A DNA stretch of 24,349 nucleotides. It comes from Candidatus Rifleibacterium amylolyticum. Lineage in GTDB: Bacteria > Muiribacteriota > Ozemobacteria > Ozemobacterales > Ozemobacteraceae. The stretch is taken from assembly GCA_009917695.1 (NCBI GenBank), contig JAACJG010000011.1, positions 156,997 through 181,345 of the forward strand, given 5' to 3'. Shown here piece by piece: positions 7,177 to 20,965 of this stretch. Numbering within the stretch: the stretch's first letter is position 1; every line of letters starts with the position of its first letter. The notes beneath the pieces are model-generated. The model saw only the letters and a program-made list of their open reading frames with translations. It searched no databases and was not told the DNA's origin. The position numbers and the translations under genes were made by a program.

Positions 7177-7443
7177 TCATAGAATCTCTGAATGCGAACC
7201 GGTTCGGATAAATACAATCGTATCGTCTTCGATGCGATATATCAAAAGCCAGTCCGGCCCCAGATGACATTCTCTACAACCTTTCCAGTTTCCGATCAAA
7301 TCGTGATCACGGAACCTGCTCTCAAGTTTTTCCTCTTGCTGTAGCCTTATCATTACATTCTTGAGAGTCGCAATATTGCGGCCCTGCTTCCCGGCTTTTT
7401 TGTAATCTTTTTTGAATTTACTGCCATACTGGGCCTTAAGCAT
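7177..7443 (-). CDS. yafQ: Type II toxin of the YafQ/RelE family (mRNA interferase)
   Basis: HDLIGNWKGCRECHLGPDWLLIYRIEDDTIVFIRTGSHSEIL matches the YafQ C-terminal signature. The ATG at 7441-7443 overlaps the stop of the upstream antitoxin gene by 8 nt. Confidence 0.85.
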   Translation of the reverse strand: MLKAQYGSKFKKDYKKAGKQGRNIATLKNVMIRLQQEEKLESRFRDHDLIGNWKGCRECHLGPDWLLIYRIEDDTIVFIRTGSHSEIL

Positions 7444-7699
7444 CCAGATCCTCAAACATTTCCTCAGGTGTGTTATAAACTTTGCTCAGGTTCTTGCCCT
7501 CAATAGCCTCTTCAATCGCTTTTATCGTTTCAGGATTGGTAATCTTCACCGGAAATGGCAATCCCTGTTCCATGATGATCCGTCTGAAAAAAATGCCAAT
7601 TGCTTCACTGGTAGTCAGGCCGAGAGTCTTCAAAACCTTTTCAACCTCGGTTTTTATACCGGGCTCAATCCGTGTCTGGATAGTAGCAGTTTTACTCAT
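7436..7699 (-). CDS. dinJ: Type II antitoxin of the DinJ/RelB family
   Basis: The 87-aa protein begins MSKTATIQTRIEPGIKTEVEKVLKTLGLTTSEAIGIFFRRII, a ribbon-helix-helix DinJ-like N-terminus. An AGGAGA ribosome-binding site precedes the ATG, and the gene is immediately upstream of the YafQ-like gene. Confidence 0.85.
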   Translation of the reverse strand: MSKTATIQTRIEPGIKTEVEKVLKTLGLTTSEAIGIFFRRIIMEQGLPFPVKITNPETIKAIEEAIEGKNLSKVYNTPEEMFEDLDA

Positions 7700-7832: not shown

Positions 7833-9206
7833 TCAGTGGGACACCTTGAGAAACTGCAGATCGTCTGGGGTGCCGGTCTTAAGATCTGAGCCCGGGCTCA
7901 GCAGCGAAGGCGCTGAAGCGTTGTAATTCCAGGCGGCTGCGGTAAACGGGTCTTGCGGCAGCGAGGCCACGCCAAGCCAGGATGCGACTTCGCCAAGATC
8001 GGCCGGCCAGTTGCCATTTTCATTATGGTAAGCGTGCAACGCAACGGCCAGAGCGCCACCACGCAGCATTGCCCTGGTTTTGACCGACGTAATATAAAGC
8101 GTGTCAAGATTCGGCATCATCGTGCCCAGCAATAGCTGCATAAACGAAGTATCCGGCATGAAGAAGAATCTGGTGTAATGCAGGCCGAAACTCGCGTTGA
8201 ACTGTTTTAACGGGCGGGCCAGTTCGTGAACTTGCGCAAGCCGTTTTATCGCCTGCGGGTATGGTTCGGCGCAAACCTGTCGGAAGCCACTCATAATCGG
8301 GACAAGATAAGAGTCAACGACAGCCTGATCACTGAAAAGTGCCACAAGAGCGTGAGGATTTCTACCGAAAGTTTTCATGGCTTCACCGTTGTCTATGGCT
8401 CTCTGCCAATTGCGGGCAAAAGCCGGCCAGAAGTTGAGCTCGTTGGAAAGCACGCGTTCCGGCGAGGGGTATGACTTCTCCAGGGTTTCAGACCATTGCA
8501 GAACCTGGATGGCGTCCGCTTTGCTGCTTTTAATTGTCGGAGCGAGTTCACGCAGCAGACTGCCAGTCAACTGCCCGATGTTTTCGCCAATTGCGTGCCC
8601 CAGGATGGAAAGCGCACCAGTCCAGGTTTCGTGAATTTCAAGAATAGCGCCGACTGCCGCCGGAGCGAATGCAGCAAGCAGTGCCTGCTGCGAGTTCCCC
8701 TGTCGGGCAGCCTGCCATGCCAGCAACGCGCAAAAACGGGCACTGGTTCTGATCGGTACGTATGAAAGTGCTCCAACGTAACAGTTTTTTTCAGAGGGTT
8801 CGGGTGCTGCAACCGGAAAAGATGCCAACAGCTGCGGCAATCTGTCGCATATTGCCCGGGTTCTGGCATCGAGATCGGGAACATTGGCAAGCCAGGCTTC
8901 GATTTTAGCATCTTCAGCAAAAAATTCGCCGCTGCTTTTTCCCCCTTCACCCGCCAGACTGTAAAGCTGACTGTATGTTTCAGATGCCGCTGGTGGCATG
9001 ACCCCGTCAATGAGTGCCATGGGATTGGCGACTGATGAGTTCACGGCCGCCCTGAGATCGGGTTCAGACTTCTGCAGCTGGTTGGTGTTGAGGAAGCTGG
9101 CGTTCAGGTCATACCATAGCGTCAGCAGCCGATAACTCTGGATCAGCGAATATAATATGAGAGCAGCTCCCAGAATCACTCTGGTTTTGCTTTTTATCTT
9201 TATCAT
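7833..9206 (-). CDS. Large N-terminally membrane-anchored protein, hypothetical
   Basis: This 457-aa ORF is the longest open frame here. Its N-terminus KTRVILGAALILYSLIQSY is a hydrophobic anchor. No recognisable catalytic motifs. Confidence 0.55.
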   Translation of the reverse strand: MIKIKSKTRVILGAALILYSLIQSYRLLTLWYDLNASFLNTNQLQKSEPDLRAAVNSSVANPMALIDGVMPPAASETYSQLYSLAGEGGKSSGEFFAEDAKIEAWLANVPDLDARTRAICDRLPQLLASFPVAAPEPSEKNCYVGALSYVPIRTSARFCALLAWQAARQGNSQQALLAAFAPAAVGAILEIHETWTGALSILGHAIGENIGQLTGSLLRELAPTIKSSKADAIQVLQWSETLEKSYPSPERVLSNELNFWPAFARNWQRAIDNGEAMKTFGRNPHALVALFSDQAVVDSYLVPIMSGFRQVCAEPYPQAIKRLAQVHELARPLKQFNASFGLHYTRFFFMPDTSFMQLLLGTMMPNLDTLYITSVKTRAMLRGGALAVALHAYHNENGNWPADLGEVASWLGVASLPQDPFTAAAWNYNASAPSLLSPGSDLKTGTPDDLQFLKVSH

Positions 9207-9363: not shown

Positions 9364-10209
9364 ATGCAGGAATATCGATCGATAAGCAGGGTCGTAAAGG
9401 GTATGGAAACGACCGACGGGGCCGGGGTGCGGCTGGTGCGCGTATTTGGCAGCCGCGATGTCGCTGATTTCGACCCTTTTCTGATGATGGACGCTTTTGA
9501 TAACTCGCAGCCGGAACAGTATATCAAGGGCTTTCCGTGGCACCCGCACCGCGGCATCGAGACGATAACCTATCTGATCGAGGGAAATGTCGAACATGGC
9601 GACAGCCTCGGCAACAAGGGTAACATCTTCAACGGCGACTGTCAGTGGATGACTGCCGGCAGCGGCATCATCCATCAGGAAATGCCGCAGCCGCCCGGCC
9701 GCATGATCGGCGTGCAGATCTGGCTGAATATGCCTGCGAAAGACAAGATGGCGCCGCCGGCCTACGGCGACATACTCTCGGCGAATGTGCCGGTAATAGC
9801 CGATCAGGGCTGCGAAGTGCGGCTGATTTCGGGCACTCATCTCGGCCGCAACGGCGCCTTCACCGGCCATTACATCAAACCTCTGTATATGGACGTAAAA
9901 ATGCCGGCGCGTTCGACCTGGGAGCTGGCAACGGCTGAAGATCAGACGCTTTACACTTACACATTTTTCGGTTCCGGCAGCTTCGATCCTGAGACCGGCA
10001 AGGTCTACGGCAACAAGGTCGCTCTGCTGTTCAGCCCCGGCAAAAAAATGCGCGTCAGCGCCGGCGACGAAGAGTTGCGTTTCATCGTGCTTTCAGCGCC
10101 GCCGCTGCACGAACCCATCGCCTGGGGCGGCCCGATCGTCATGAACACCCAGGCCGAACTCGACCAGGCTTTCCGCGAACTGGAATCCGGCAGCTTCATC
10201 AAAAACTGA
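9364..10209 (+). CDS. Pirin-family protein (cupin, quercetinase-like)
   Basis: An AAGGAG ribosome-binding site precedes the ATG at 9364. Motifs FDPFLMMDAF...FPWHPHRGIETITYLIEGNVEHGDSLGN...GDCQWMTAGSGIIHQEMP are characteristic of pirin/YhhW. Confidence 0.85.
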   Translation: MQEYRSISRVVKGMETTDGAGVRLVRVFGSRDVADFDPFLMMDAFDNSQPEQYIKGFPWHPHRGIETITYLIEGNVEHGDSLGNKGNIFNGDCQWMTAGSGIIHQEMPQPPGRMIGVQIWLNMPAKDKMAPPAYGDILSANVPVIADQGCEVRLISGTHLGRNGAFTGHYIKPLYMDVKMPARSTWELATAEDQTLYTYTFFGSGSFDPETGKVYGNKVALLFSPGKKMRVSAGDEELRFIVLSAPPLHEPIAWGGPIVMNTQAELDQAFRELESGSFIKN

Positions 10210-10219
10210 CTATCACCTG

Positions 10220-10249
10220 CTTTTTTGCTTTGCCGGCCGGTGCTGCCTT
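10220..10249. repeat. 30-bp direct repeat, copy 1 (CTTTTTTGCTTTGCCGGCCGGTGCTGCCTT); the second copy is at 12135-12164
   Basis: The two copies differ at 1 of 30 positions. Copy 1 is non-coding, between the convergent pirin and ankyrin-like genes. Confidence 0.7.
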
Positions 10250-10262
10250 CGGAAAATCTGAG

Positions 10263-11063
10263 TTAATCCTGTTTATCTGCGGGTGTGGGTTTAACGCGCA
10301 TACGCGAGGCTACTTCCGTCAGCTGCTTTTTGACTTTCTCATCCCTGATATCCTCGATCATGGCGTCACGAATCTCAGGCCCGGCGAGCATGAAGAACAT
10401 TTCTACAGCAGTTGGCATGGGAAATGGGACAGGCAAACGCTGGCTGATCGTCTGCCCGCTGTTGATAAGTTCTACAATTATTGCCGATCTTTGGCGCAGG
10501 CTTTCAAGAAACATCGCGCGGGAAAAATTCTTATGATCCGATTCTTTTCTGCCGACAAAAAACGCGACTACCAGGTAATTCTGGCGTTCCGGCTTGAGCC
10601 CCGCCGCTATAAGCTGGCGCAGAAGTTTAAGGTTGTCGGTTCTGACAGCAAGAGCAAGAAGATCGTAGCTGCTTTTCCCCAACTGGCCATCTTTTGTATA
10701 ATGGCTTGCAGTGAGCTCATTAAGCAGTTTTATATCTTTTGTGTCAGCCAGAATTAATGGCAACGATTTTTCTGCTCCGGCAACGACAGCCAGAGAAATC
10801 GGGTTGTAAAGCATGGTTGTTTCGCTGGCATAAAACCGATAGATGCTGTCTGTCGGCAGTTCAAAGCTGTAATCAATTGCGAACTCAGTTTTCTGACCCT
10901 TGCTGAGAAGTTGCGCCACTGTTTCAACATCATCACGAACAATGGCGTCAAGCAGCTTCTTTTGCGAAAGAACAGGATCGGGCAACGAGAAGTGCATGAA
11001 CAGCAGGTAACTGCCAATCAGCAGTGAAAAACTGATAAAAAAGGTCATGACAAATATTTTCAT
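10263..11063 (-). CDS. Membrane-anchored protein with ankyrin-repeat-like segments
   Basis: The N-terminus MKIFVMTFFISFSLLIGSYLLF is a signal or anchor. Stretches such as NPISLAVVAGAEKSLPLILA and DLLALAVRTDNLKLLRQLIAAGLKP are ankyrin-like. Confidence 0.55.
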   Translation of the reverse strand: MKIFVMTFFISFSLLIGSYLLFMHFSLPDPVLSQKKLLDAIVRDDVETVAQLLSKGQKTEFAIDYSFELPTDSIYRFYASETTMLYNPISLAVVAGAEKSLPLILADTKDIKLLNELTASHYTKDGQLGKSSYDLLALAVRTDNLKLLRQLIAAGLKPERQNYLVVAFFVGRKESDHKNFSRAMFLESLRQRSAIIVELINSGQTISQRLPVPFPMPTAVEMFFMLAGPEIRDAMIEDIRDEKVKKQLTEVASRMRVKPTPADKQD

Positions 11064-11154
11064 GCGGCAGACTATCCCCCTGATATTCTATCAGGTTCTT
11101 TACAGGAACGCACAATAGTTATAATTCGCCCAGCAATTCTCGGTCAGAATTAGT

Positions 11155-11248
11155 GTCATTCTGCGCGAGCCGTAAGGCGAAGTCGCAGAATCCACTTTTT
11201 AGCGCTTTTCTGGATCCTGCGACTGCGCTTCGCTTCGCGCAGGATGAC
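11155..11248. repeat. Long imperfect inverted repeat of about 94 nt, predicted to form a stem-loop: a 14-bp outer stem, an internal bulge, an inner stem of about 18 bp and an 18-nt loop
   Basis: GTCATTCTGCGCGA...GGCGAAGTCGCAGAATCC [loop ACTTTTTAGCGCTTTTCT] GGATCCTGCGACTGCGCT...TCGCGCAGGATGAC. The pairing was checked by hand. It lies between the HicB-like remnant and the ankyrin-like gene, both on the minus strand. Confidence 0.6.
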
Positions 11249-11295
11249 AAACAAAAAAGTCAAACCCAAAATCGTTATCACTGTTGATGATGGTT

Positions 11296-11549
11296 TTACG
11301 CCTCACCGAGAATTACTGGAAAGCGCCCGGAAACATCAGCCTCAACGTAGTCTATAGGCTTGGTTTTGGGTTCTGGAATTTTCTTTCCCATATCCATTCT
11401 TGCCGCAACCCATGCAAGAACAGCGTCTTTTCCGTTTTCAAGCGCTTCTTCTTCGGTTTCGCCATCAGACATACATCCGGGCAGATCCGGGCTTCTTTTC
11501 TTTTTCGCCGGAATTCCCAGCCCGGGGCATCTTCATCACATCTTGACAT
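11296..11549 (-). pseudogene. HicB-family antitoxin gene (UPF0150, RNase H-like fold) disrupted by a frameshift, with no hicA partner
   Basis: The minus-strand frame ending at TAA (11296-11298) encodes ...SPDLPGCMSDGETEEEALENGKDAVLAWVAARMDMGKKIPEP..., the HicB PDLPGC-x-S-x-G-x-T-x-EEAL-EN signature. That frame has no start codon upstream of the motif. An N-terminal piece (MSRCDEDAPGWEF) is in another frame. The two frames switch within the A-run CGAAAAAGAAAAGAAG. Confidence 0.55.
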
Positions 11550-11575
11550 ACCAAATATAATATATATACTATAAT
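11544..11575 (+). promoter_or_regulatory. Candidate sigma70-type promoter for higBA: -35 TTGACA (11544-11549) and -10 TACTAT (11567-11572, 17-bp spacing) or TATAAT (11570-11575). This implies a leaderless or near-leaderless transcript
   Basis: Hexamers were read from the sequence. The higB ATG at 11580 lies only 4-7 nt after the -10 element, and no Shine-Dalgarno sequence is possible. Confidence 0.4.
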
Positions 11576-11579
11576 TGGT

Positions 11580-11861
11580 ATGTGGAAAATATACGAACAC
11601 AAAAACCTGTTAAAAGCACTTGAAATGCTGCCTGTAGAAATCCTTAAGCGATATGAAAAGTGGAAAGATATAGTGGCAATTTCAGGCCCTGTTGGACTAA
11701 GGCAGATTAAAGGTTTCAATGACGAGCCATTGCGTGGGGCATGGAAAGGATACCGCTCATCTCGTCTCAATATTCAGTATCGCATTATTTACAAAATAGA
11801 AAACGAACAATTTTTTGTAAAAGTTGTTAAGGTAACGGCTCATGACTATCGGAGGAAATGA
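11580..11861 (+). CDS. higB: Type II toxin of the RelE/ParE superfamily, HigB-like
   Basis: The 93-aa protein ...FNDEPLRGAWKGYRSSRLNIQYRIIYKIENEQFFVKVVKVTAHDY matches the HigB/RelE fold signature. It is followed 1 nt later by an HTH antitoxin gene; toxin-first order is typical of higBA. Confidence 0.8.
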   Translation: MWKIYEHKNLLKALEMLPVEILKRYEKWKDIVAISGPVGLRQIKGFNDEPLRGAWKGYRSSRLNIQYRIIYKIENEQFFVKVVKVTAHDYRRK

Positions 11862-11862
11862 A

Positions 11863-12123
11863 ATGAAAGACTACATCGAGGCAAAAAAAAGAGCAGAAGT
11901 GTCTGTTGGCGAATCCGTAAGAATAATTCGTGAGCTCCAGAATTTAAGCCAGAGTGAGCTGTCTCAACTGACTGGCATACCTCAATCAACGCTTTCGGCT
12001 ATTGAGCACGATAAAATCAATCTGGGTGTTGAGAGAGCCAAAGTATTAGCAAGGGCTTTGAAATGTCATCCGGCTGTTCTGGTTTTCCCAGGCTGGGATG
12101 TAAGTCTGGAAATTGCGGCGTAA
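11863..12123 (+). CDS. higA: HTH_XRE-family antitoxin, HigA-like
   Basis: A GGAGGA ribosome-binding site precedes the ATG at 11863. VRIIRELQNLSQSELSQLTGIPQSTLSAIEHDKINLGVERAKVLARAL is a Cro/C1-type helix-turn-helix. Confidence 0.75.
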   Translation: MKDYIEAKKRAEVSVGESVRIIRELQNLSQSELSQLTGIPQSTLSAIEHDKINLGVERAKVLARALKCHPAVLVFPGWDVSLEIAA

Positions 12124-12131
12124 CCCCCGGA

Positions 12132-12500
12132 TTACTTTTTTGCTTTGCCGGCCGGCGCTGCCTTTGCAGAGGTTTTCGCCGGCTTTTTCTTCGGCTTCGG
12201 TTCGGGCAGTTCCTGTGTGGTGATTCTGATGAGCTCGCACAGCCATTCGCGATCTTCGAACTGGCCGTCGATGAGAAAATTCGGCTTCGCGCCAGGATAC
12301 GGCTGGCCCTCGACCACCTCACCGATAAAGGCGCGCCCGCCTGCCGTCGGCTTGACGAACAGCTGGTTATCGCACACCATGGCAACAACCTTGCCGCCGC
12401 AATAAATGGCATACTCGCCAAACATCTTTTTGCAGCTGACACCCTTCACATCCCGCAGCTGATCAACGATAAATTCGACAAATTCCGCATCAGAAGCCAT
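12132..12500 (-). CDS. TfoX/Sxy N-terminal-domain protein with a lysine-rich C-terminal tail
   Basis: A GAGGT ribosome-binding site precedes the ATG at 12500. MFGEYAIYCGGKVVAMVCDNQLFVKPT fits the TfoX_N core. The tail EPKPKKKPAKTSAKAAPAGKAKK is basic. Confidence 0.6.
   Translation of the reverse strand: MASDAEFVEFIVDQLRDVKGVSCKKMFGEYAIYCGGKVVAMVCDNQLFVKPTAGGRAFIGEVVEGQPYPGAKPNFLIDGQFEDREWLCELIRITTQELPEPKPKKKPAKTSAKAAPAGKAKK
12135..12164. repeat. 30-bp direct repeat, copy 2. It overlaps the 3' end of the TfoX-like gene and encodes its C-terminal tail ...KAAPAGKAKK
   Basis: CTTTTTTGCTTTGCCGGCCGGCGCTGCCTT, 29/30 identical to copy 1 at 10220-10249 and in the same orientation. Confidence 0.7.
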
Positions 12501-12597: not shown

Positions 12598-12900
12598 ATG
12601 AACACAAAAATCACATATCAATATCGTGACGCCAGTAACTATAAGCTTTCTAGCGAAGTCATCATCAAAGGCGAACTGAGTTTTAAAGACCTAGAACCCT
12701 ACTTGATCGATAGCCAATTTTTTGTGCCCGAGGAGTTGCATTTGCCTCGCCTGCAATTCGACACTCACACAGAAGACGACCACGATTGGCATGAATTCCT
12801 AAGTCTCGAACCCTGCACCGACCCGCCATCAATCGGCTTGACAAGCCAAAAGCTTATCAAGGCTGCAAAAAGCTACAAGTTAAGCCATCCATACATCTAA
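12598..12900 (+). CDS. Small hypothetical protein (100 aa), first gene of an AT-rich cassette
   Basis: An AAGGA ribosome-binding site lies 12 nt upstream. Local GC is about 38% against about 55% in the flanks. The stop is 4 nt before the HNH gene's ATG. Confidence 0.5.
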   Translation: MNTKITYQYRDASNYKLSSEVIIKGELSFKDLEPYLIDSQFFVPEELHLPRLQFDTHTEDDHDWHEFLSLEPCTDPPSIGLTSQKLIKAAKSYKLSHPYI

Positions 12901-12904
12901 CTCA

Positions 12905-13654
12905 ATGACTAAAAATAACAACTGGACAAGAGAAGAGACGATCATTGCATTCGAACTTTATTGCAGAACACCATTCGGTAGAATGCATAAGGGTAACCCT
13001 GAAATAATCGAATTAGCGAAGACTATAACGAGAACCCCAAGTGCCGTGGCACTCAAATTATGTAATTTTGCACATTTAGACCCGACCTTGTCTCAAAAAG
13101 GCGCCTCACATGGGAGTAAGCAAGATCAAAAAATTTGGGACGAGTTCGCTTCGAATCTTGAATCGCTGATTGAAGCTGCCCATGCAATTAAGAAAAGATT
13201 AAAAATGCCTGTCGAAAGTGAAACTGACGAGCCAATTGACCAAATACGCGAAACAGACAAGTTTGCTACAGTCAAAACTAGAGTTGGTCAACGATTCTTT
13301 CGCGCTATGATTCTATCAAGTTATGATACAAAGTGCTGTGTCACCGGTATTGGCTTATCAGAAATATTGGTTGCCAGCCATATTATTCCTTGGTCTGTTG
13401 ACAAAGACCATAGATTGAACCCGAGAAATGGCCTGTGTTTGAACGTGATGCATGATAAAGTGTTCGATCTTGGCATGATGAGCTTGGACGATGATTACCG
13501 AGTGATTTTTTCGAGTAAAATTAAAGATGTTGCAGCCAAGAATGGTCTAGACTTTTTATTGCGGACTGAAGGACACAGAATTACGCTCCCCAAAAGATTT
13601 TTGCCTGATATATCACTCATCCAACAACACAGAATTCAAAATGGTTTTGAATGA
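12905..13654 (+). CDS. HNH endonuclease (HNH_2 / predicted restriction endonuclease type) with an N-terminal W-x-EE-x-AL-LY domain
   Basis: RVGQRFFRAMILSSYDTKCCVTGIGLSEILVASHIIPWSVDKDHRLNPRNGLCLNVMHDKVFDLGMMSLDDDY is the HNH_2 motif set (R-GQ-FR...Y...C-TG...L-A-HI-P...NGL-L...H--FD-G). The N-terminus reads NWTREETIIAFELYCRTPFG. The gene is AT-rich. Confidence 0.8.
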   Translation: MTKNNNWTREETIIAFELYCRTPFGRMHKGNPEIIELAKTITRTPSAVALKLCNFAHLDPTLSQKGASHGSKQDQKIWDEFASNLESLIEAAHAIKKRLKMPVESETDEPIDQIRETDKFATVKTRVGQRFFRAMILSSYDTKCCVTGIGLSEILVASHIIPWSVDKDHRLNPRNGLCLNVMHDKVFDLGMMSLDDDYRVIFSSKIKDVAAKNGLDFLLRTEGHRITLPKRFLPDISLIQQHRIQNGFE

Positions 13655-14357
13655 ACCGTAGTAAAAATTTCAGCATAATAGTTTTTGTCATATGCATTTC
13701 ACTGATGTTCTGTGAAAGTATTTATGCTGATGTAATAAAAGAAATTTCTTCATCCACCTATCACAATGAATCTTATGAGCAGAGATTTGCTGAGACGGAA
13801 GAACTCATGAAGCGGGGGGTGGCGCTGGGGCGGGAGAAGAAATATGCTGAGTCGGCGGCGGAGCTTAGGAAGGCGATCGAGCTGATTCCGGATAATGGGC
13901 CGCTGTGGTATAACCTCGGGATGTCGCTTTATAATGGCGGCGAGACGGATGCGGCCGGCGGGCGTGGCAGAAGACGGTTGAGCTGCGGCCGGATTATGCG
14001 GATGCCTGGTATATGCTTGGGATGCTCGATGCGAAAGAAGGTCGCAGCGCCGAGGCGATCGCGGCCTATGCGAAAAGTTCAGAACTCAAACCGCAGGACG
14101 GCGAAGCACAGGCAGCGCTGGTTAGAGAGTGTCTCAAACTCGCCCGACGTAAGTACGAGCAGCTGCAGCAGAGCGACCCGGCCCGCGCGAAAAAGCTGGC
14201 CGGCGAATTTCCCGGCAATGTTTCGCCTGCCAGCGGCAGCGGAAAACACCCGCTCGCCGATACCGAAATTCCGGGAACCGGCAAAACCTTCGACGAACTG
14301 CTTGAAATTTTCAAGCACATACCATTTCAGCGCACTCAGCCGAAAAGCCGACATTAA
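13651..14357 (+). pseudogene. TPR-repeat protein gene with a signal peptide, carrying a frameshift near 13945-13960
   Basis: The ATG overlaps the HNH stop (ATGA). Frame A gives a signal peptide (MNRSKNFSIIVFVICISLMFCESIYA) and a TPR helix (LWYNLGMSLYNGGETDAA). It then turns Arg-rich nonsense. Frame B continues the TPR sequence (AWQKTVELRPDYADAWYMLGMLDAKEGRSAEAIAAYAKSSELKPQDG...) to TAA at 14355-14357. The frames switch in the GC run GCCGGCGGGCGTGG. Confidence 0.55.
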
Positions 14358-15475
14358 AGGTATAGTTCTTTGAGAAAACGGTCAGCGTCGACAAGGTCGA
14401 TGTTGCCGGACGACTGCTCGCGTTTGAGGTCTTTGACGACCTGAACCCCTTTAAGGTTGTATTTTTCGCAGAACCAGACAAGGCCGGCTGCGATTTTATC
14501 GCGATCGCTTTTTGCTTCGATTGCCATTAAGACCTGCTGGTCGCGGCACAGGCAGAAATCGACTTCCCTGCCCTCTTTTGTGCGCAGGTATTTAAGCTCG
14601 AGCCTGTCGCCGAGACAGTCGTTACTTGCCAGAACATGCTTGAGCAGGCTTACGGCGAGATGATTTTCGAATTTTGCCCCGATATCGCCAACTACCAGCG
14701 AAGTATCATAAAAATAGACCTTGGGGGCCTTCAAAATTGATCGGCCGATATTGCTTGAATACGTGTAAATCCTGAAGATAATGAACAACGACTCGAGAAT
14801 GCTGATGTAACGGGTAGCGGTGACTGGCGATATTCCGGCGTCGCGTGCGATCGAGGCGATTGAAAGCGGCGAACCGACTGAGCGCCGGAGAATCTCAAAG
14901 ACAATTTTTATCGCATTCAGGTCATTGATATTCTCAAAATTCAGAATATCGGTTCTGATAAGACCGTCAATATACTGATTGCGCCAGCGTCTGGCATCGG
15001 TATCGCTCTCAGCCAGAAAGGGCTCAGGGAAACCGCCGCGTTCGATGAAACGATCGATAGTGGCCAGTTCAGCATGTTCTTTTACTTCAGCCAGGGAAAA
15101 AGGAAGCAGACGATGCGCAAAAAAACGGCCGGCCAGCGAGTCGCCGGTCTGTCTGAATGCATCGAGGCGGGCACTGCCGGTCACCAGAATTCTCAGGCCT
15201 TCTGCTCTGGTGTCGAACACACCTTTGATATAGTTCTTCCAGCCGGGCATCTTGTGCAGTTCATCGAGTATCAGCAAATCAGTATTTCTGGGCCAGGACT
15301 CAGCCTTGATAATCTGCTGATCTTCGAAGCGATCGTAATTCAGATACTGGCTGTGCTTGAATTTTCTGGCGATTTCCTTTGCCAGCCAGGTTTTGCCGAC
15401 CTGCCGGGGGCCGACAATGAAGACAATCTTCTTTTCGAGGTCATGAAGAATCTGATCGATCTGATTTCTGCGCAT
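14354..15475 (-). CDS. AAA-family ATPase (AAA_14 domain plus DUF4143 type)
   Basis: It has a Walker A motif (IVGPRQVGKTW), a Walker B motif (LLILDE) and a C-terminal region typical of COG1373-like ATPases. Confidence 0.8.
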   Translation of the reverse strand: MRRNQIDQILHDLEKKIVFIVGPRQVGKTWLAKEIARKFKHSQYLNYDRFEDQQIIKAESWPRNTDLLILDELHKMPGWKNYIKGVFDTRAEGLRILVTGSARLDAFRQTGDSLAGRFFAHRLLPFSLAEVKEHAELATIDRFIERGGFPEPFLAESDTDARRWRNQYIDGLIRTDILNFENINDLNAIKIVFEILRRSVGSPLSIASIARDAGISPVTATRYISILESLFIIFRIYTYSSNIGRSILKAPKVYFYDTSLVVGDIGAKFENHLAVSLLKHVLASNDCLGDRLELKYLRTKEGREVDFCLCRDQQVLMAIEAKSDRDKIAAGLVWFCEKYNLKGVQVVKDLKREQSSGNIDLVDADRFLKELYL

Positions 15476-15497
15476 ATGACTATTTTATACCAGACTG

Positions 15498-15541
15498 ACA
15501 AATAGTCAAGACTATTTGTTATTACGGTAAAAAATAGTCAA
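15498..15541. promoter_or_regulatory. Operator-like element: the palindrome ACAAATAGTC-AA-GACTATTTGT (15498-15519) plus a third direct copy of AAATAGTCAA at 15532-15541
   Basis: Read directly from the sequence. It lies 23-66 bp upstream of the ATPase gene start on the minus strand, and downstream of the gspF-like gene. Confidence 0.45.
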
Positions 15542-15544
15542 ATG

Positions 15545-19910: not shown

Positions 19911-20600
19911 ATGAGTATAGTATCAACCACAGACCTGAAACGTGTTTATGAAAGTGGCGCAACCGAGGTAAAAGCGGTTAACGGCGTCAGCCTGAGTATC
20001 GAAGCGGGCGAGTTTGCGGTTCTCGCCGGGCCTTCCGGCAGTGGCAAGACGACTCTGCTGAATCTGATCGGCGGGCTTGACCGACCGACAGATGGCAGCG
20101 TTCACCTCGATGGCGAACTGCTCAACGACAAAAGTGACGACGAACTGACACGGGCGCGGCTTTTCAAGATAGGGTTCATTTTTCAGGCATATAATCTGGT
20201 GCCGGTATTGAGCGCTTACGAGAATGTGCAGTTCATTCTGCAGATTCAGGGAGTTCCTGATTCAAAGCATGAAGAGCGCATCATGCCGCTGTTTGAAGAG
20301 CTTGGCCTGAGCGGGTTGGCGCATCGCCGCCCGGGCGAACTCAGCGGCGGCCAGCAGCAGCGCGTTGCAGTGGCACGCGCCATTGTCGGGCACCCTTCGA
20401 TCATTCTCGCCGACGAACCGACGGCAAATCTTGATTCAGAGAGCGCGGTAGCGCTGCTTAACCTGATGCATCGCCTCAATCTTGAACAGAAGGTCACTTT
20501 TCTGTTCAGCTCGCATGATAAAAAGGTCATAGACATAGCACAACGGGTCATCTCGATGCGCGACGGTAAAATCTGTGATGATCACAAAAAAACGCAGTAG
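19911..20600 (+). CDS. ABC transporter ATP-binding protein of the MacB/LolD type
   Basis: It has a Walker A motif (GPSGSGKTTL), the ABC signature LSGGQQQRVAVARA, a Walker B motif ILADEPT and an H-loop. Confidence 0.9.
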   Translation: MSIVSTTDLKRVYESGATEVKAVNGVSLSIEAGEFAVLAGPSGSGKTTLLNLIGGLDRPTDGSVHLDGELLNDKSDDELTRARLFKIGFIFQAYNLVPVLSAYENVQFILQIQGVPDSKHEERIMPLFEELGLSGLAHRRPGELSGGQQQRVAVARAIVGHPSIILADEPTANLDSESAVALLNLMHRLNLEQKVTFLFSSHDKKVIDIAQRVISMRDGKICDDHKKTQ

Positions 20601-20878
20601 TGGTCTGTCACATTTGAACTGCGGGGTAAAGTTGAGCTGAATGCGAAACAAGTTAAGCAGACAAAACAAGGGCGCAGGCGGGTTTCTCAGGCGCGGAAAC
20701 TTCGAGCCAGGCGACGTTGACGCAGAGCCATAGCTATACAACAATACTCACGCCTGGTGAGAGTTGTAGCGAATGAGATTCCGCCGAGAGCCCGGTATAA
20801 GCGGAGATTCTAAGATTTAATTCTTGAACTCTTATGTGACAGAGGAGTAGTGGTCTGACAAAGTTGAATCGCATGGTA
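20594..20878. repeat. Pair of imperfect direct repeats of about 35 bp (20594-20628 and 20844-20878, about 77% identical) flanking a 215-bp non-coding segment
   Basis: GCAGTAGTGGTCTGTCACATTTGAACTGCGGGGTAAA versus GGAGTAGTGGTCTGACAAAGTTGAATCGCATGGTAAA. The first copy contains the ATPase stop codon; the second precedes the downstream gene. Confidence 0.5.
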
Positions 20879-20965
20879 AAAAATGGTCACAGTGAAGAGA
20901 GTAGCGACGAAGCAATCCATCTGCCAATGGGATTAGCATCAGAGCTGGGCTTATGCCTCCTGCAT

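Follow-up and report, generated by a model that had tools for sequence, protein, structure and literature searches.

Short copies of a TfoX gene end mark an insertion hot spot between convergent genes in Candidatus Rifleibacterium amylolyticum

A 24,349-nt stretch of the genome of Candidatus Rifleibacterium amylolyticum (the whole of the DNA analysed, hereafter the window) contains two convergent genes separated by a 1.9-kb segment that is bracketed by a 30-nt direct repeat and carries a predicted toxin-antitoxin (TA) operon. Read on the TfoX strand, the left-hand anchor of the locus is a conserved TfoX_N gene (12132..12500, minus strand, 122 aa; PF04993), whose product is identical to KAF1080341.1 of the same species, and the right-hand anchor is a pirin gene (9364..10209, plus strand, 281 aa; Pfam Pirin and Pirin_C). 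The repeat, CTTTTTTGCTTTGCCGGCCGG(T/C)GCTGCCTT, occurs on one strand at 10220-10249 and 12135-12164 with 29 of 30 positions identical; at up to three mismatches these were the only two matches in the window, and 100 dinucleotide-preserving shuffles gave none. The right copy consists of the last ten codons of TfoX_N on the minus strand and encodes the protein tail ...KAAPAGKAKK. The left copy (10220..10249, minus strand) lies 10 nt past the pirin stop codon and 13 nt past that of a 266-aa gene (hereafter O); it does not code for protein, and its conceptual reading is the same KAAPAGKAKK. The 10 nt between this copy and pirin (10210..10219, CTATCACCTG; CAGGTGATAG on the TfoX strand) represent the ancestral TfoX-pirin spacer. 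An earlier note on this DNA had reported the repeat and assigned its right copy to the coding end of TfoX_N, and both statements are confirmed here.

Relatives of the window strain retain the same junction with the segment absent. In contig L017 (CAZMWO010000411.1), TfoX_N ends in ...AAAAAG TAG and is followed after 7 nt by the pirin stop codon on the opposite strand, and in L080 (Logan SRR8925827) the two genes overlap by 11 nt; each contig has one 30-mer. These independent assemblies, with TfoX_N and pirin directly convergent, supply the empty site that the earlier note had proposed to look for, and L080 is close to the filled contig L081 (TfoX 95.8% and pirin end 98.8% identical). The left copy in the window, together with the 10-nt spacer and the end of pirin, is colinear with the junctions of L017 and L080, so that the left copy is the displaced original end of TfoX, the relic that the earlier note took it to be. 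The spacer is orthologous to the empty-site spacer of L017, and the same sequence occurs in a relic in L066. Taken together, the empty sites and the orthologous spacer indicate that the bracketed DNA is inserted DNA; no deletion of the segment was found among contigs of the window's own lineage, and no circular or excised form was seen. The lineages compared are close relatives, since their pirin genes are 91-98% and their TfoX genes 89-97% identical, and a TfoX nucleotide tree groups them loosely by downstream cargo, a pattern compatible with one-sided homologous exchange but not decisive for it. Among species-representative genomes, a TfoX query returned L016, L017 and L018, the last a more distant Riflebacteria TfoX with neither the extended tail nor a pirin neighbour, and a synteny search with the 457-aa orphan gene that adjoins pirin returned no relatives.

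The 30-mer has no detectable function, being neither terminator-like nor present at other loci or replicons. No terminator-like structure was found at either copy, and no Rfam family matched in the repeat and hairpin region or in the window as a whole. A scan of metagenome and viral contigs with a degenerate 23-mer core recovered only two contigs of the same lineage and three chance matches in unrelated GC-rich genes, with none on viral contigs. A common dispersed repeat, which the earlier note had named as an outcome that would undo its interpretation, was dropped, as the core matched outside the lineage only by chance.

The bracketed segment has a GC content of 0.45, against 0.58 for pirin and 0.55 for TfoX, and a blastn search with 1.98 kb of it found no match in plasmid and phage collections. 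Nearest to pirin is module O (10250..11122, minus strand), which comprises the 266-aa gene (10263-11063) and its own upstream region. The product is a putative membrane-anchored orphan with no Pfam or NCBIfam match, and its structure model (predicted local distance difference test score 69, medium confidence) gave weak matches, to ankyrin-repeat proteins only. O was also considered as a widespread mobile gene and rejected as such, with just one 90% cluster and one 43% relative in an unrelated context. Beyond O is a palindromic 94-nt hairpin (11154..11248; dG -34.6 kcal/mol, z -3.9). A second copy of a hairpin arm was seen at L005 1-30, ~460-490 nt upstream of the window start, and the hairpin is a copy of a dispersed palindromic element. 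It is followed by a decayed 58-aa fragment of a HicB-like antitoxin (11296..11472, minus strand), whose match to PF15919 (E 9e-5, positions 25-65 of the 123 in the profile) does not reach the Pfam cut-off; L006 and L007-L013 lack window positions 11242-11377.

The TA operon lies nearest to TfoX_N, on the plus strand. A strong promoter-like site (11543..11570, TTGACA-16-TATACT, 11 of 12 positions) precedes a 93-aa RelE/StbE-family toxin in the higB position (11580..11861; TIGR02385, 31.4 bits, cut-off 27.9), for which Pfam YoeB, ParE and HigB-like matches are weak, and a helix-turn-helix (HTH) antitoxin of the Xre-type HTH_3 family in the higA position (11842..12123; PF01381, E 5e-14). A RelE-fold toxin upstream of an HTH antitoxin, with overlapping open reading frames (ORFs) and a promoter-like site, is the make-up of a type II TA module, and the pair is predicted to be one in the higBA arrangement. 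No integrase, transposase or tRNA gene was found within the 24-kb window. The contents listed in the earlier note (the weakly ankyrin-like gene, the hairpin, the decayed HicB fragment and higBA) were all located, and its statement that the window holds no integrase stands.

The 1.9 kb is a composite of at least two insertions and not one element. In L081 and L016, 13 nt of ancestral spacer and another 36 nt separate TfoX from O with its promoter, and the 30-mer and then the spacer come 13 nt behind the O gene; there is no higBA in this TfoX-to-spacer stretch, and the repeat extends over ~40 nt of TfoX tail and spacer. In L017, O is located elsewhere, behind a 455-aa gene, also with no higBA, and a unit of TfoX tail, higA and higB that lacks O stands alone as a relic in L006 and L016. 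The single integrated or excisable element suggested by the earlier note is not supported by these arrangements, in which O and higBA occur separately. In the window, higA, higB, the HicB fragment and the hairpin (~1.0 kb) take the place of the 49 nt that lead in L081 and L016 from the TfoX stop codon to the upstream region of O (~11122 in the window); the boundary of the O module at ~11113-11122 is common to the window, L016, L017 and L081. The junction between O and the 30-mer arose once, because it is identical in the window, L006, L016, L076 and L081. Since deletion from the window arrangement cannot yield the spacer remnant of L081 and L016, O would have entered first, with a ~40-nt duplication, and the TA block second; higBA, the HicB fragment and the hairpin most likely joined later and shortened the repeat to 30 nt. 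An origin of the window arrangement in an L006-like state, through recombination between 30-mers, was considered and rejected, as it would leave TAATCC-higA beside the repeat and not the ancestral spacer.

The TfoX-pirin junction is an insertion hot spot with cargo that differs by lineage. L065-L068 and L077-L079 carry between TfoX and pirin a TA pair of a second higBA type, made up of a HigB_toxin gene (PF09907) and a gene for a 126-aa HTH protein; this cassette is associated with a 25-nt TfoX relic at the same spacer, of which 6 nt are kept on the TfoX side. The resulting 31-nt duplication (positions 6-30 of the 30-mer and 6 spacer nucleotides) is offset by 5-6 nt from that of the window. 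L075 encodes a 636-aa protein between ~50-nt duplicates of the pirin tail (~80% identical) and has no second 30-mer. In L081, which also has O, the spacer and pirin are separated by an intact hicAB pair with a repeat of only 4 nt (TCAG). The duplicated stretches thus span positions 1-40 for O, positions 6-36 for the HigB_toxin cassette, ~50 nt of pirin tail in L075 and 4 nt for hicAB. L069-L074 extend more than 8 kb past TfoX and include a Y2 transposase fragment and a resolvase gene, 3-5 kb downstream of TfoX, as well as a group II intron.

A nested arrangement is found in the sister strains L006 and L076, which read TfoX, higA, higB, (hairpin), O, 30-mer, ankyrin gene (523 aa), 33 nt of TfoX-like sequence, an Rpn/YhgA gene, 82 nt of TfoX tail, higA, truncated higB and pirin. 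In L006 and L016, a TfoX tail of 82 or ~60 nt is followed by higA and a truncated higB, together a 496-bp duplicate with 96% identity; the truncated higB, cut at the position corresponding to window 11718 or 11708, is fused to the final codon of the pirin gene in L006 and, in L016, to an amidase gene. Across lineages the TfoX relics measure 25, 30, ~33, ~60 and 82 nt. The Rpn/YhgA-type gene (Transposase_31, TIGR01784; L006 13860-14876, L076 6771-7571) is flanked in its islet by imperfect ~30-nt repeats derived from the part of the TfoX tail that encodes PEPKPKKK.

On balance, the two 30-mers are probably a recombination scar, left by illegitimate or anchor-assisted insertion, and not a working site. 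The ancestral state, kept in L017 and L080, would have been a convergent TfoX_N and pirin that abutted or overlapped. The promoter-bearing module O would then have entered the junction with a ~40-nt duplication of TfoX tail and spacer, as preserved in L081 and partly in L016; because ~40 nt of the junction was duplicated, both genes kept complete 3' ends. In a second event, the higBA-like operon, the HicB remnant and the palindromic element may have been placed between the TfoX stop codon and the O promoter, replacing the spacer half of the TfoX-side copy and leaving the 30-nt repeat. The route may have been non-site-specific illegitimate recombination in one step with duplication. Alternatively, TfoX or pirin may have served as a homologous anchor with the other end joined illegitimately, as in homology-facilitated illegitimate recombination (HFIR), or sequential displacement. 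An anchor, variable cargo and orphaned 3' fragments of TfoX accompanied by former neighbours (L006, L016) are the pattern of sequential displacement, and variable positions, a cut higB and relics of 25-82 nt are that of illegitimate junctions. Homologous exchange at the conserved genes on either side is likely to have reshuffled the locus afterwards (compare PMC5635113).

Two filters may have shaped what is seen at the junction today. One would be selection for intact TfoX and pirin: with the two genes abutting or overlapping, both would stay whole only when an insertion duplicates the junction. In addition, long direct repeats would be lost by homologous recombination and short relics would persist; in E. 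coli, RecA requires about 25-30 bp for efficient recombination.

The bracketing repeats had also been compared in the earlier note with attL/attR attachment (att) sites, and part of that comparison holds, in that repeats of the target flank an insert and the empty site exists in L017 and L080. Under site-specific integration, the TfoX-tail dyad GCxxxGCCGGCCGGCxxxGC would be attB, the recombinase would be encoded elsewhere, and integrase-less attP cassettes would accrete serially as they do in tandem at tRNA sites, much as tycheposon islands grow by repeated integration (10.1101/2020.12.28.424599). L006 and L016 have three 30-mer copies between cargo blocks, with older blocks farther from TfoX, and the duplications of O and of the HigB_toxin and HTH cassette both include the palindrome. 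However, no integrase or recombinase was found in the 24-kb window, between TfoX and pirin (L006, L066, L075) or beside TfoX (L016, L081), nor in or next to the insertion in the arrangements that reach pirin, and the resolvase of L069-L074 is ~5 kb away, downstream of TfoX and among other debris of mobile elements. The limits of identity vary by event (1-40 versus 6-36), L075 duplicates the tail of pirin instead, hicAB is flanked by only 4 nt, and relics reach 82 nt and carry higA and higB along as a 496-bp duplicate. A single att core predicts constant units, a shared crossover and usually an integrase; because none of these is seen, with cargo blocks that are not constant units and a 30-mer found neither on viral contigs nor outside the lineage, it is unsupported, and site-specific integration is unlikely overall. 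Two specialized relatives of this idea were also compared with the locus. The attC sites of integrons are imperfect inverted repeats with RYYYAAC ... GTTRRRY ends and have intI, attI and Pc nearby; neither the hairpin, whose ends are GTCATTCTG...CAGGATGAC, nor the 30-mer has such motifs when compared by eye with the consensus, and the window has no IntI; the integron or gene-cassette reading of the earlier note is not supported. Modules of the Xer dif/pdif type are flanked by 28-bp XerC/XerD binding sites, and the 30-mer, AAGGCAGCGCCGGCCGGCAAAGCAAAAAAG, was rejected as such a site because it is unlike the dif consensus (a comparison made only by eye).

Insertion by cutting and filling is highly improbable. 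Here, a transposase- or casposase-like enzyme or an Rpn/YhgA nuclease would make staggered cuts 30-50 nt apart and so generate long target-site duplications, which would suit the three insertions with 31-50-nt duplications at one junction and the L006 and L076 islet in which the Rpn/YhgA gene stands between TfoX-tail-like repeats. Yet the duplications vary in length (4, 31, ~40 and ~50 nt), the cargo blocks have neither terminal inverted repeats nor a transposase, the window lacks an Rpn/YhgA gene, and the right repeat beside that gene is no copy of the left one, as it lacks a 6-nt insertion and reaches further into TfoX. A conventional transposon or insertion sequence was rejected on similar grounds: a transposase would be expected to leave terminal inverted repeats and a target duplication of constant length, whereas the duplications range from 4 to ~50 nt, the segment ends are not paired among the 25 longest inverted repeats listed, and the window has no transposase gene. 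Next to no probability attaches to a mis-joined assembly or a chance repeat of low-complexity Lys/Ala coding sequence. The data are metagenome-assembled, the TfoX tail is low-complexity coding sequence, and Logan contigs break within the segment, with L001 and L005 stopping at the hairpin; but both copies occur with their flanks at 99-100% identity in separate contigs (left copy in L005, right copy in L001 and L002), five assemblies that come from different studies share the junction between O and the 30-mer, the shuffled sequences gave no match, and the left copy and spacer are colinear with the empty sites. Artefact and chance are refuted to a reasonable standard.

Several features of the locus weigh against a scar of illegitimate or anchor-assisted insertion. 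Three independent insertions within one 90-nt junction each come with a long duplication (31, ~40 and ~50 nt), and two of the three duplications contain the GCCGGCCGGC palindrome; because random joints would not obviously give 31-50-nt duplications of one junction, a dedicated mechanism is conceivable. All TfoX relics derive from the last 82 nt of the 369-nt gene. The order of events in the window lineage is read from spacer remnants only, the enzymology is inferred, and the basis is metagenome-assembled genomes and metagenome contigs, some of them short (L080, 1.1 kb; L081, 2.5 kb; L017, 3.7 kb). Together with the duplications and the relics, the gene for an Rpn/YhgA recombination-promoting nuclease between TfoX-tail-like repeats in L006 and L076 keeps a dedicated mechanism alive at low probability. 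In that case, the abutting ends of TfoX and pirin would be a landing pad at which an unrecognized recombination activity inserts promoter-bearing modules with 30-50-nt duplications, and either a trans-acting recombinase that reads the GCCGGCCGGC dyad or a nuclease of the L006 and L076 Rpn/YhgA type could be responsible. We regard such a landing pad as very unlikely; if real, it would amount to a cassette-capture system that has no integrase and differs from integrons.

Variation is not confined to the TfoX-pirin interval. The 457-aa orphan gene adjoining pirin (window 7833-9206) is 57-80% identical in lineages with pirin identities of 91-98%, and two paralogues of it (458 and 462 aa) occur in the L066 lineage; the gene appears to be fast-evolving or diversifying. 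A proposal that cargo is far more similar than backbone, as after recent transfer between species, was withdrawn, because the 79% BLAST figure behind it belongs to this fast-evolving gene. Downstream of the 457-aa gene, a relB/yafQ TA pair (window 7177-7699) marks a second variable spot, which lacks the pair in L017, where O is found, and in L066, where the 462-aa paralogue is found. The opposite flank of TfoX also varies and has many defence genes. In the window it holds a 100-aa gene and an HNH_2 endonuclease gene (12598-13654) with weak resemblance to restriction enzymes of phosphorothioate-modified (PT) DNA; elsewhere it holds a gene for an SLFN-g3 helicase (L007, L008, L075), Dcm with AIPR, DUF4420 and Z1 (L016), or AIPR (L077). 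TfoX itself has a variant form, P0002, encoded on a 775-nt ENA contig, with an unrelated 20-residue N-terminus on a normal body and tail, which implies a recombination breakpoint within the gene in some strains.

Other features of the window were noted in passing. An intergenic piece of ~130 nt (20669-20802) is 78% identical to sequence directly upstream of TfoX in L069-L074 (L069 3974-4105) and is flanked in the window by copies of a 35-nt direct repeat (20596-20630 and 20846-20880, family D9); it is possibly a small element, mobile or regulatory. A tetratricopeptide repeat (TPR) gene, which encodes 235-238 aa in L002, L065 and L076, is represented at 13651-14373 by a 240-aa ORF and an overlapping 114-aa ORF in a stretch with a GC content of 0.61 and strong GC skew, and may be frameshifted or a pseudogene in the window strain. 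At the 5' end of an AAA_14/DUF4143 gene (start codon at 15475) is a 35-nt inverted repeat (15473-15544, 83% complementary, 2-nt gap), most of which falls within the intergenic sequence upstream.

The locus is an ordinary insertion hot spot with recombination scars. It offers a clean natural series from the uncultured phylum Riflebacteria, running from an empty site through a single and a composite insertion to nested relics, in which small islets, mainly TA pairs and ankyrin-like genes, accumulate between convergent core genes with no recognizable mobile-element machinery. Short duplicates of a gene end can imitate att sites, and for annotation this means that a direct repeat around TA genes is insufficient for calling an integrative element. 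The recurrent junction duplications of 30-50 nt are the sole unusual aspect of the locus and would become weightier if a larger sample made them the rule.

Three known kinds of variable locus and one known kind of module invite comparison. Like tycheposons and other islands that tyrosine or serine recombinases integrate at the 3' ends of genes, the TfoX-pirin interval has a directly duplicated target gene end, an intact functional gene, an empty site in relatives and several repeat copies that split cargo blocks; it differs from them in having no integrase, repeat boundaries that vary by event, a duplicated tail of the opposite gene in one lineage, non-constant cargo blocks and a repeat not found on other replicons. 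The TA pair resembles type II higBA in gene order, sizes (93 and 86-93 aa), overlapping ORFs, its own promoter-like site, a RelE/StbE match above the cut-off and an HTH_3 domain, but its toxin falls under the Pfam HigB-like cut-off; the module is cargo and not the cause of the repeat. Chromosomal hot spots that lack mobile elements gain their diversity through recombination at the core genes on either side (Oliveira et al. 2017, PMC5635113). The pirin-TfoX interval likewise holds lineage-specific accessory genes, mostly TA modules, with no integrase or transposase in most versions and a variable second TfoX flank with defence genes. A double homologous exchange in the flanks, however, produces no duplication; because the primary insertions here left duplications of 4-50 nt and truncated genes, illegitimate joints were also involved. 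Sequential displacement by HFIR, described for type VI secretion system effector-immunity arrays of Vibrio cholerae and for the 'C-terminal displacement' of Rhs, leaves 3' relics (PMC5361080). The Riflebacteria locus departs from that system in that its anchor is a small TfoX_N gene instead of a toxin gene whose C-terminal domain varies, its cargo (TA pairs, ankyrin-like genes, nuclease) is unrelated to the anchor, its relics are very short (25-82 nt), and the neighbouring pirin gene can be duplicated instead (L075). The two nevertheless share a conserved upstream anchor gene, incoming DNA that brings new downstream cargo with no integrase, an old anchor 3' end that is pushed downstream with its former neighbours as orphan relics, and nested relics that record successive events, as in L006.

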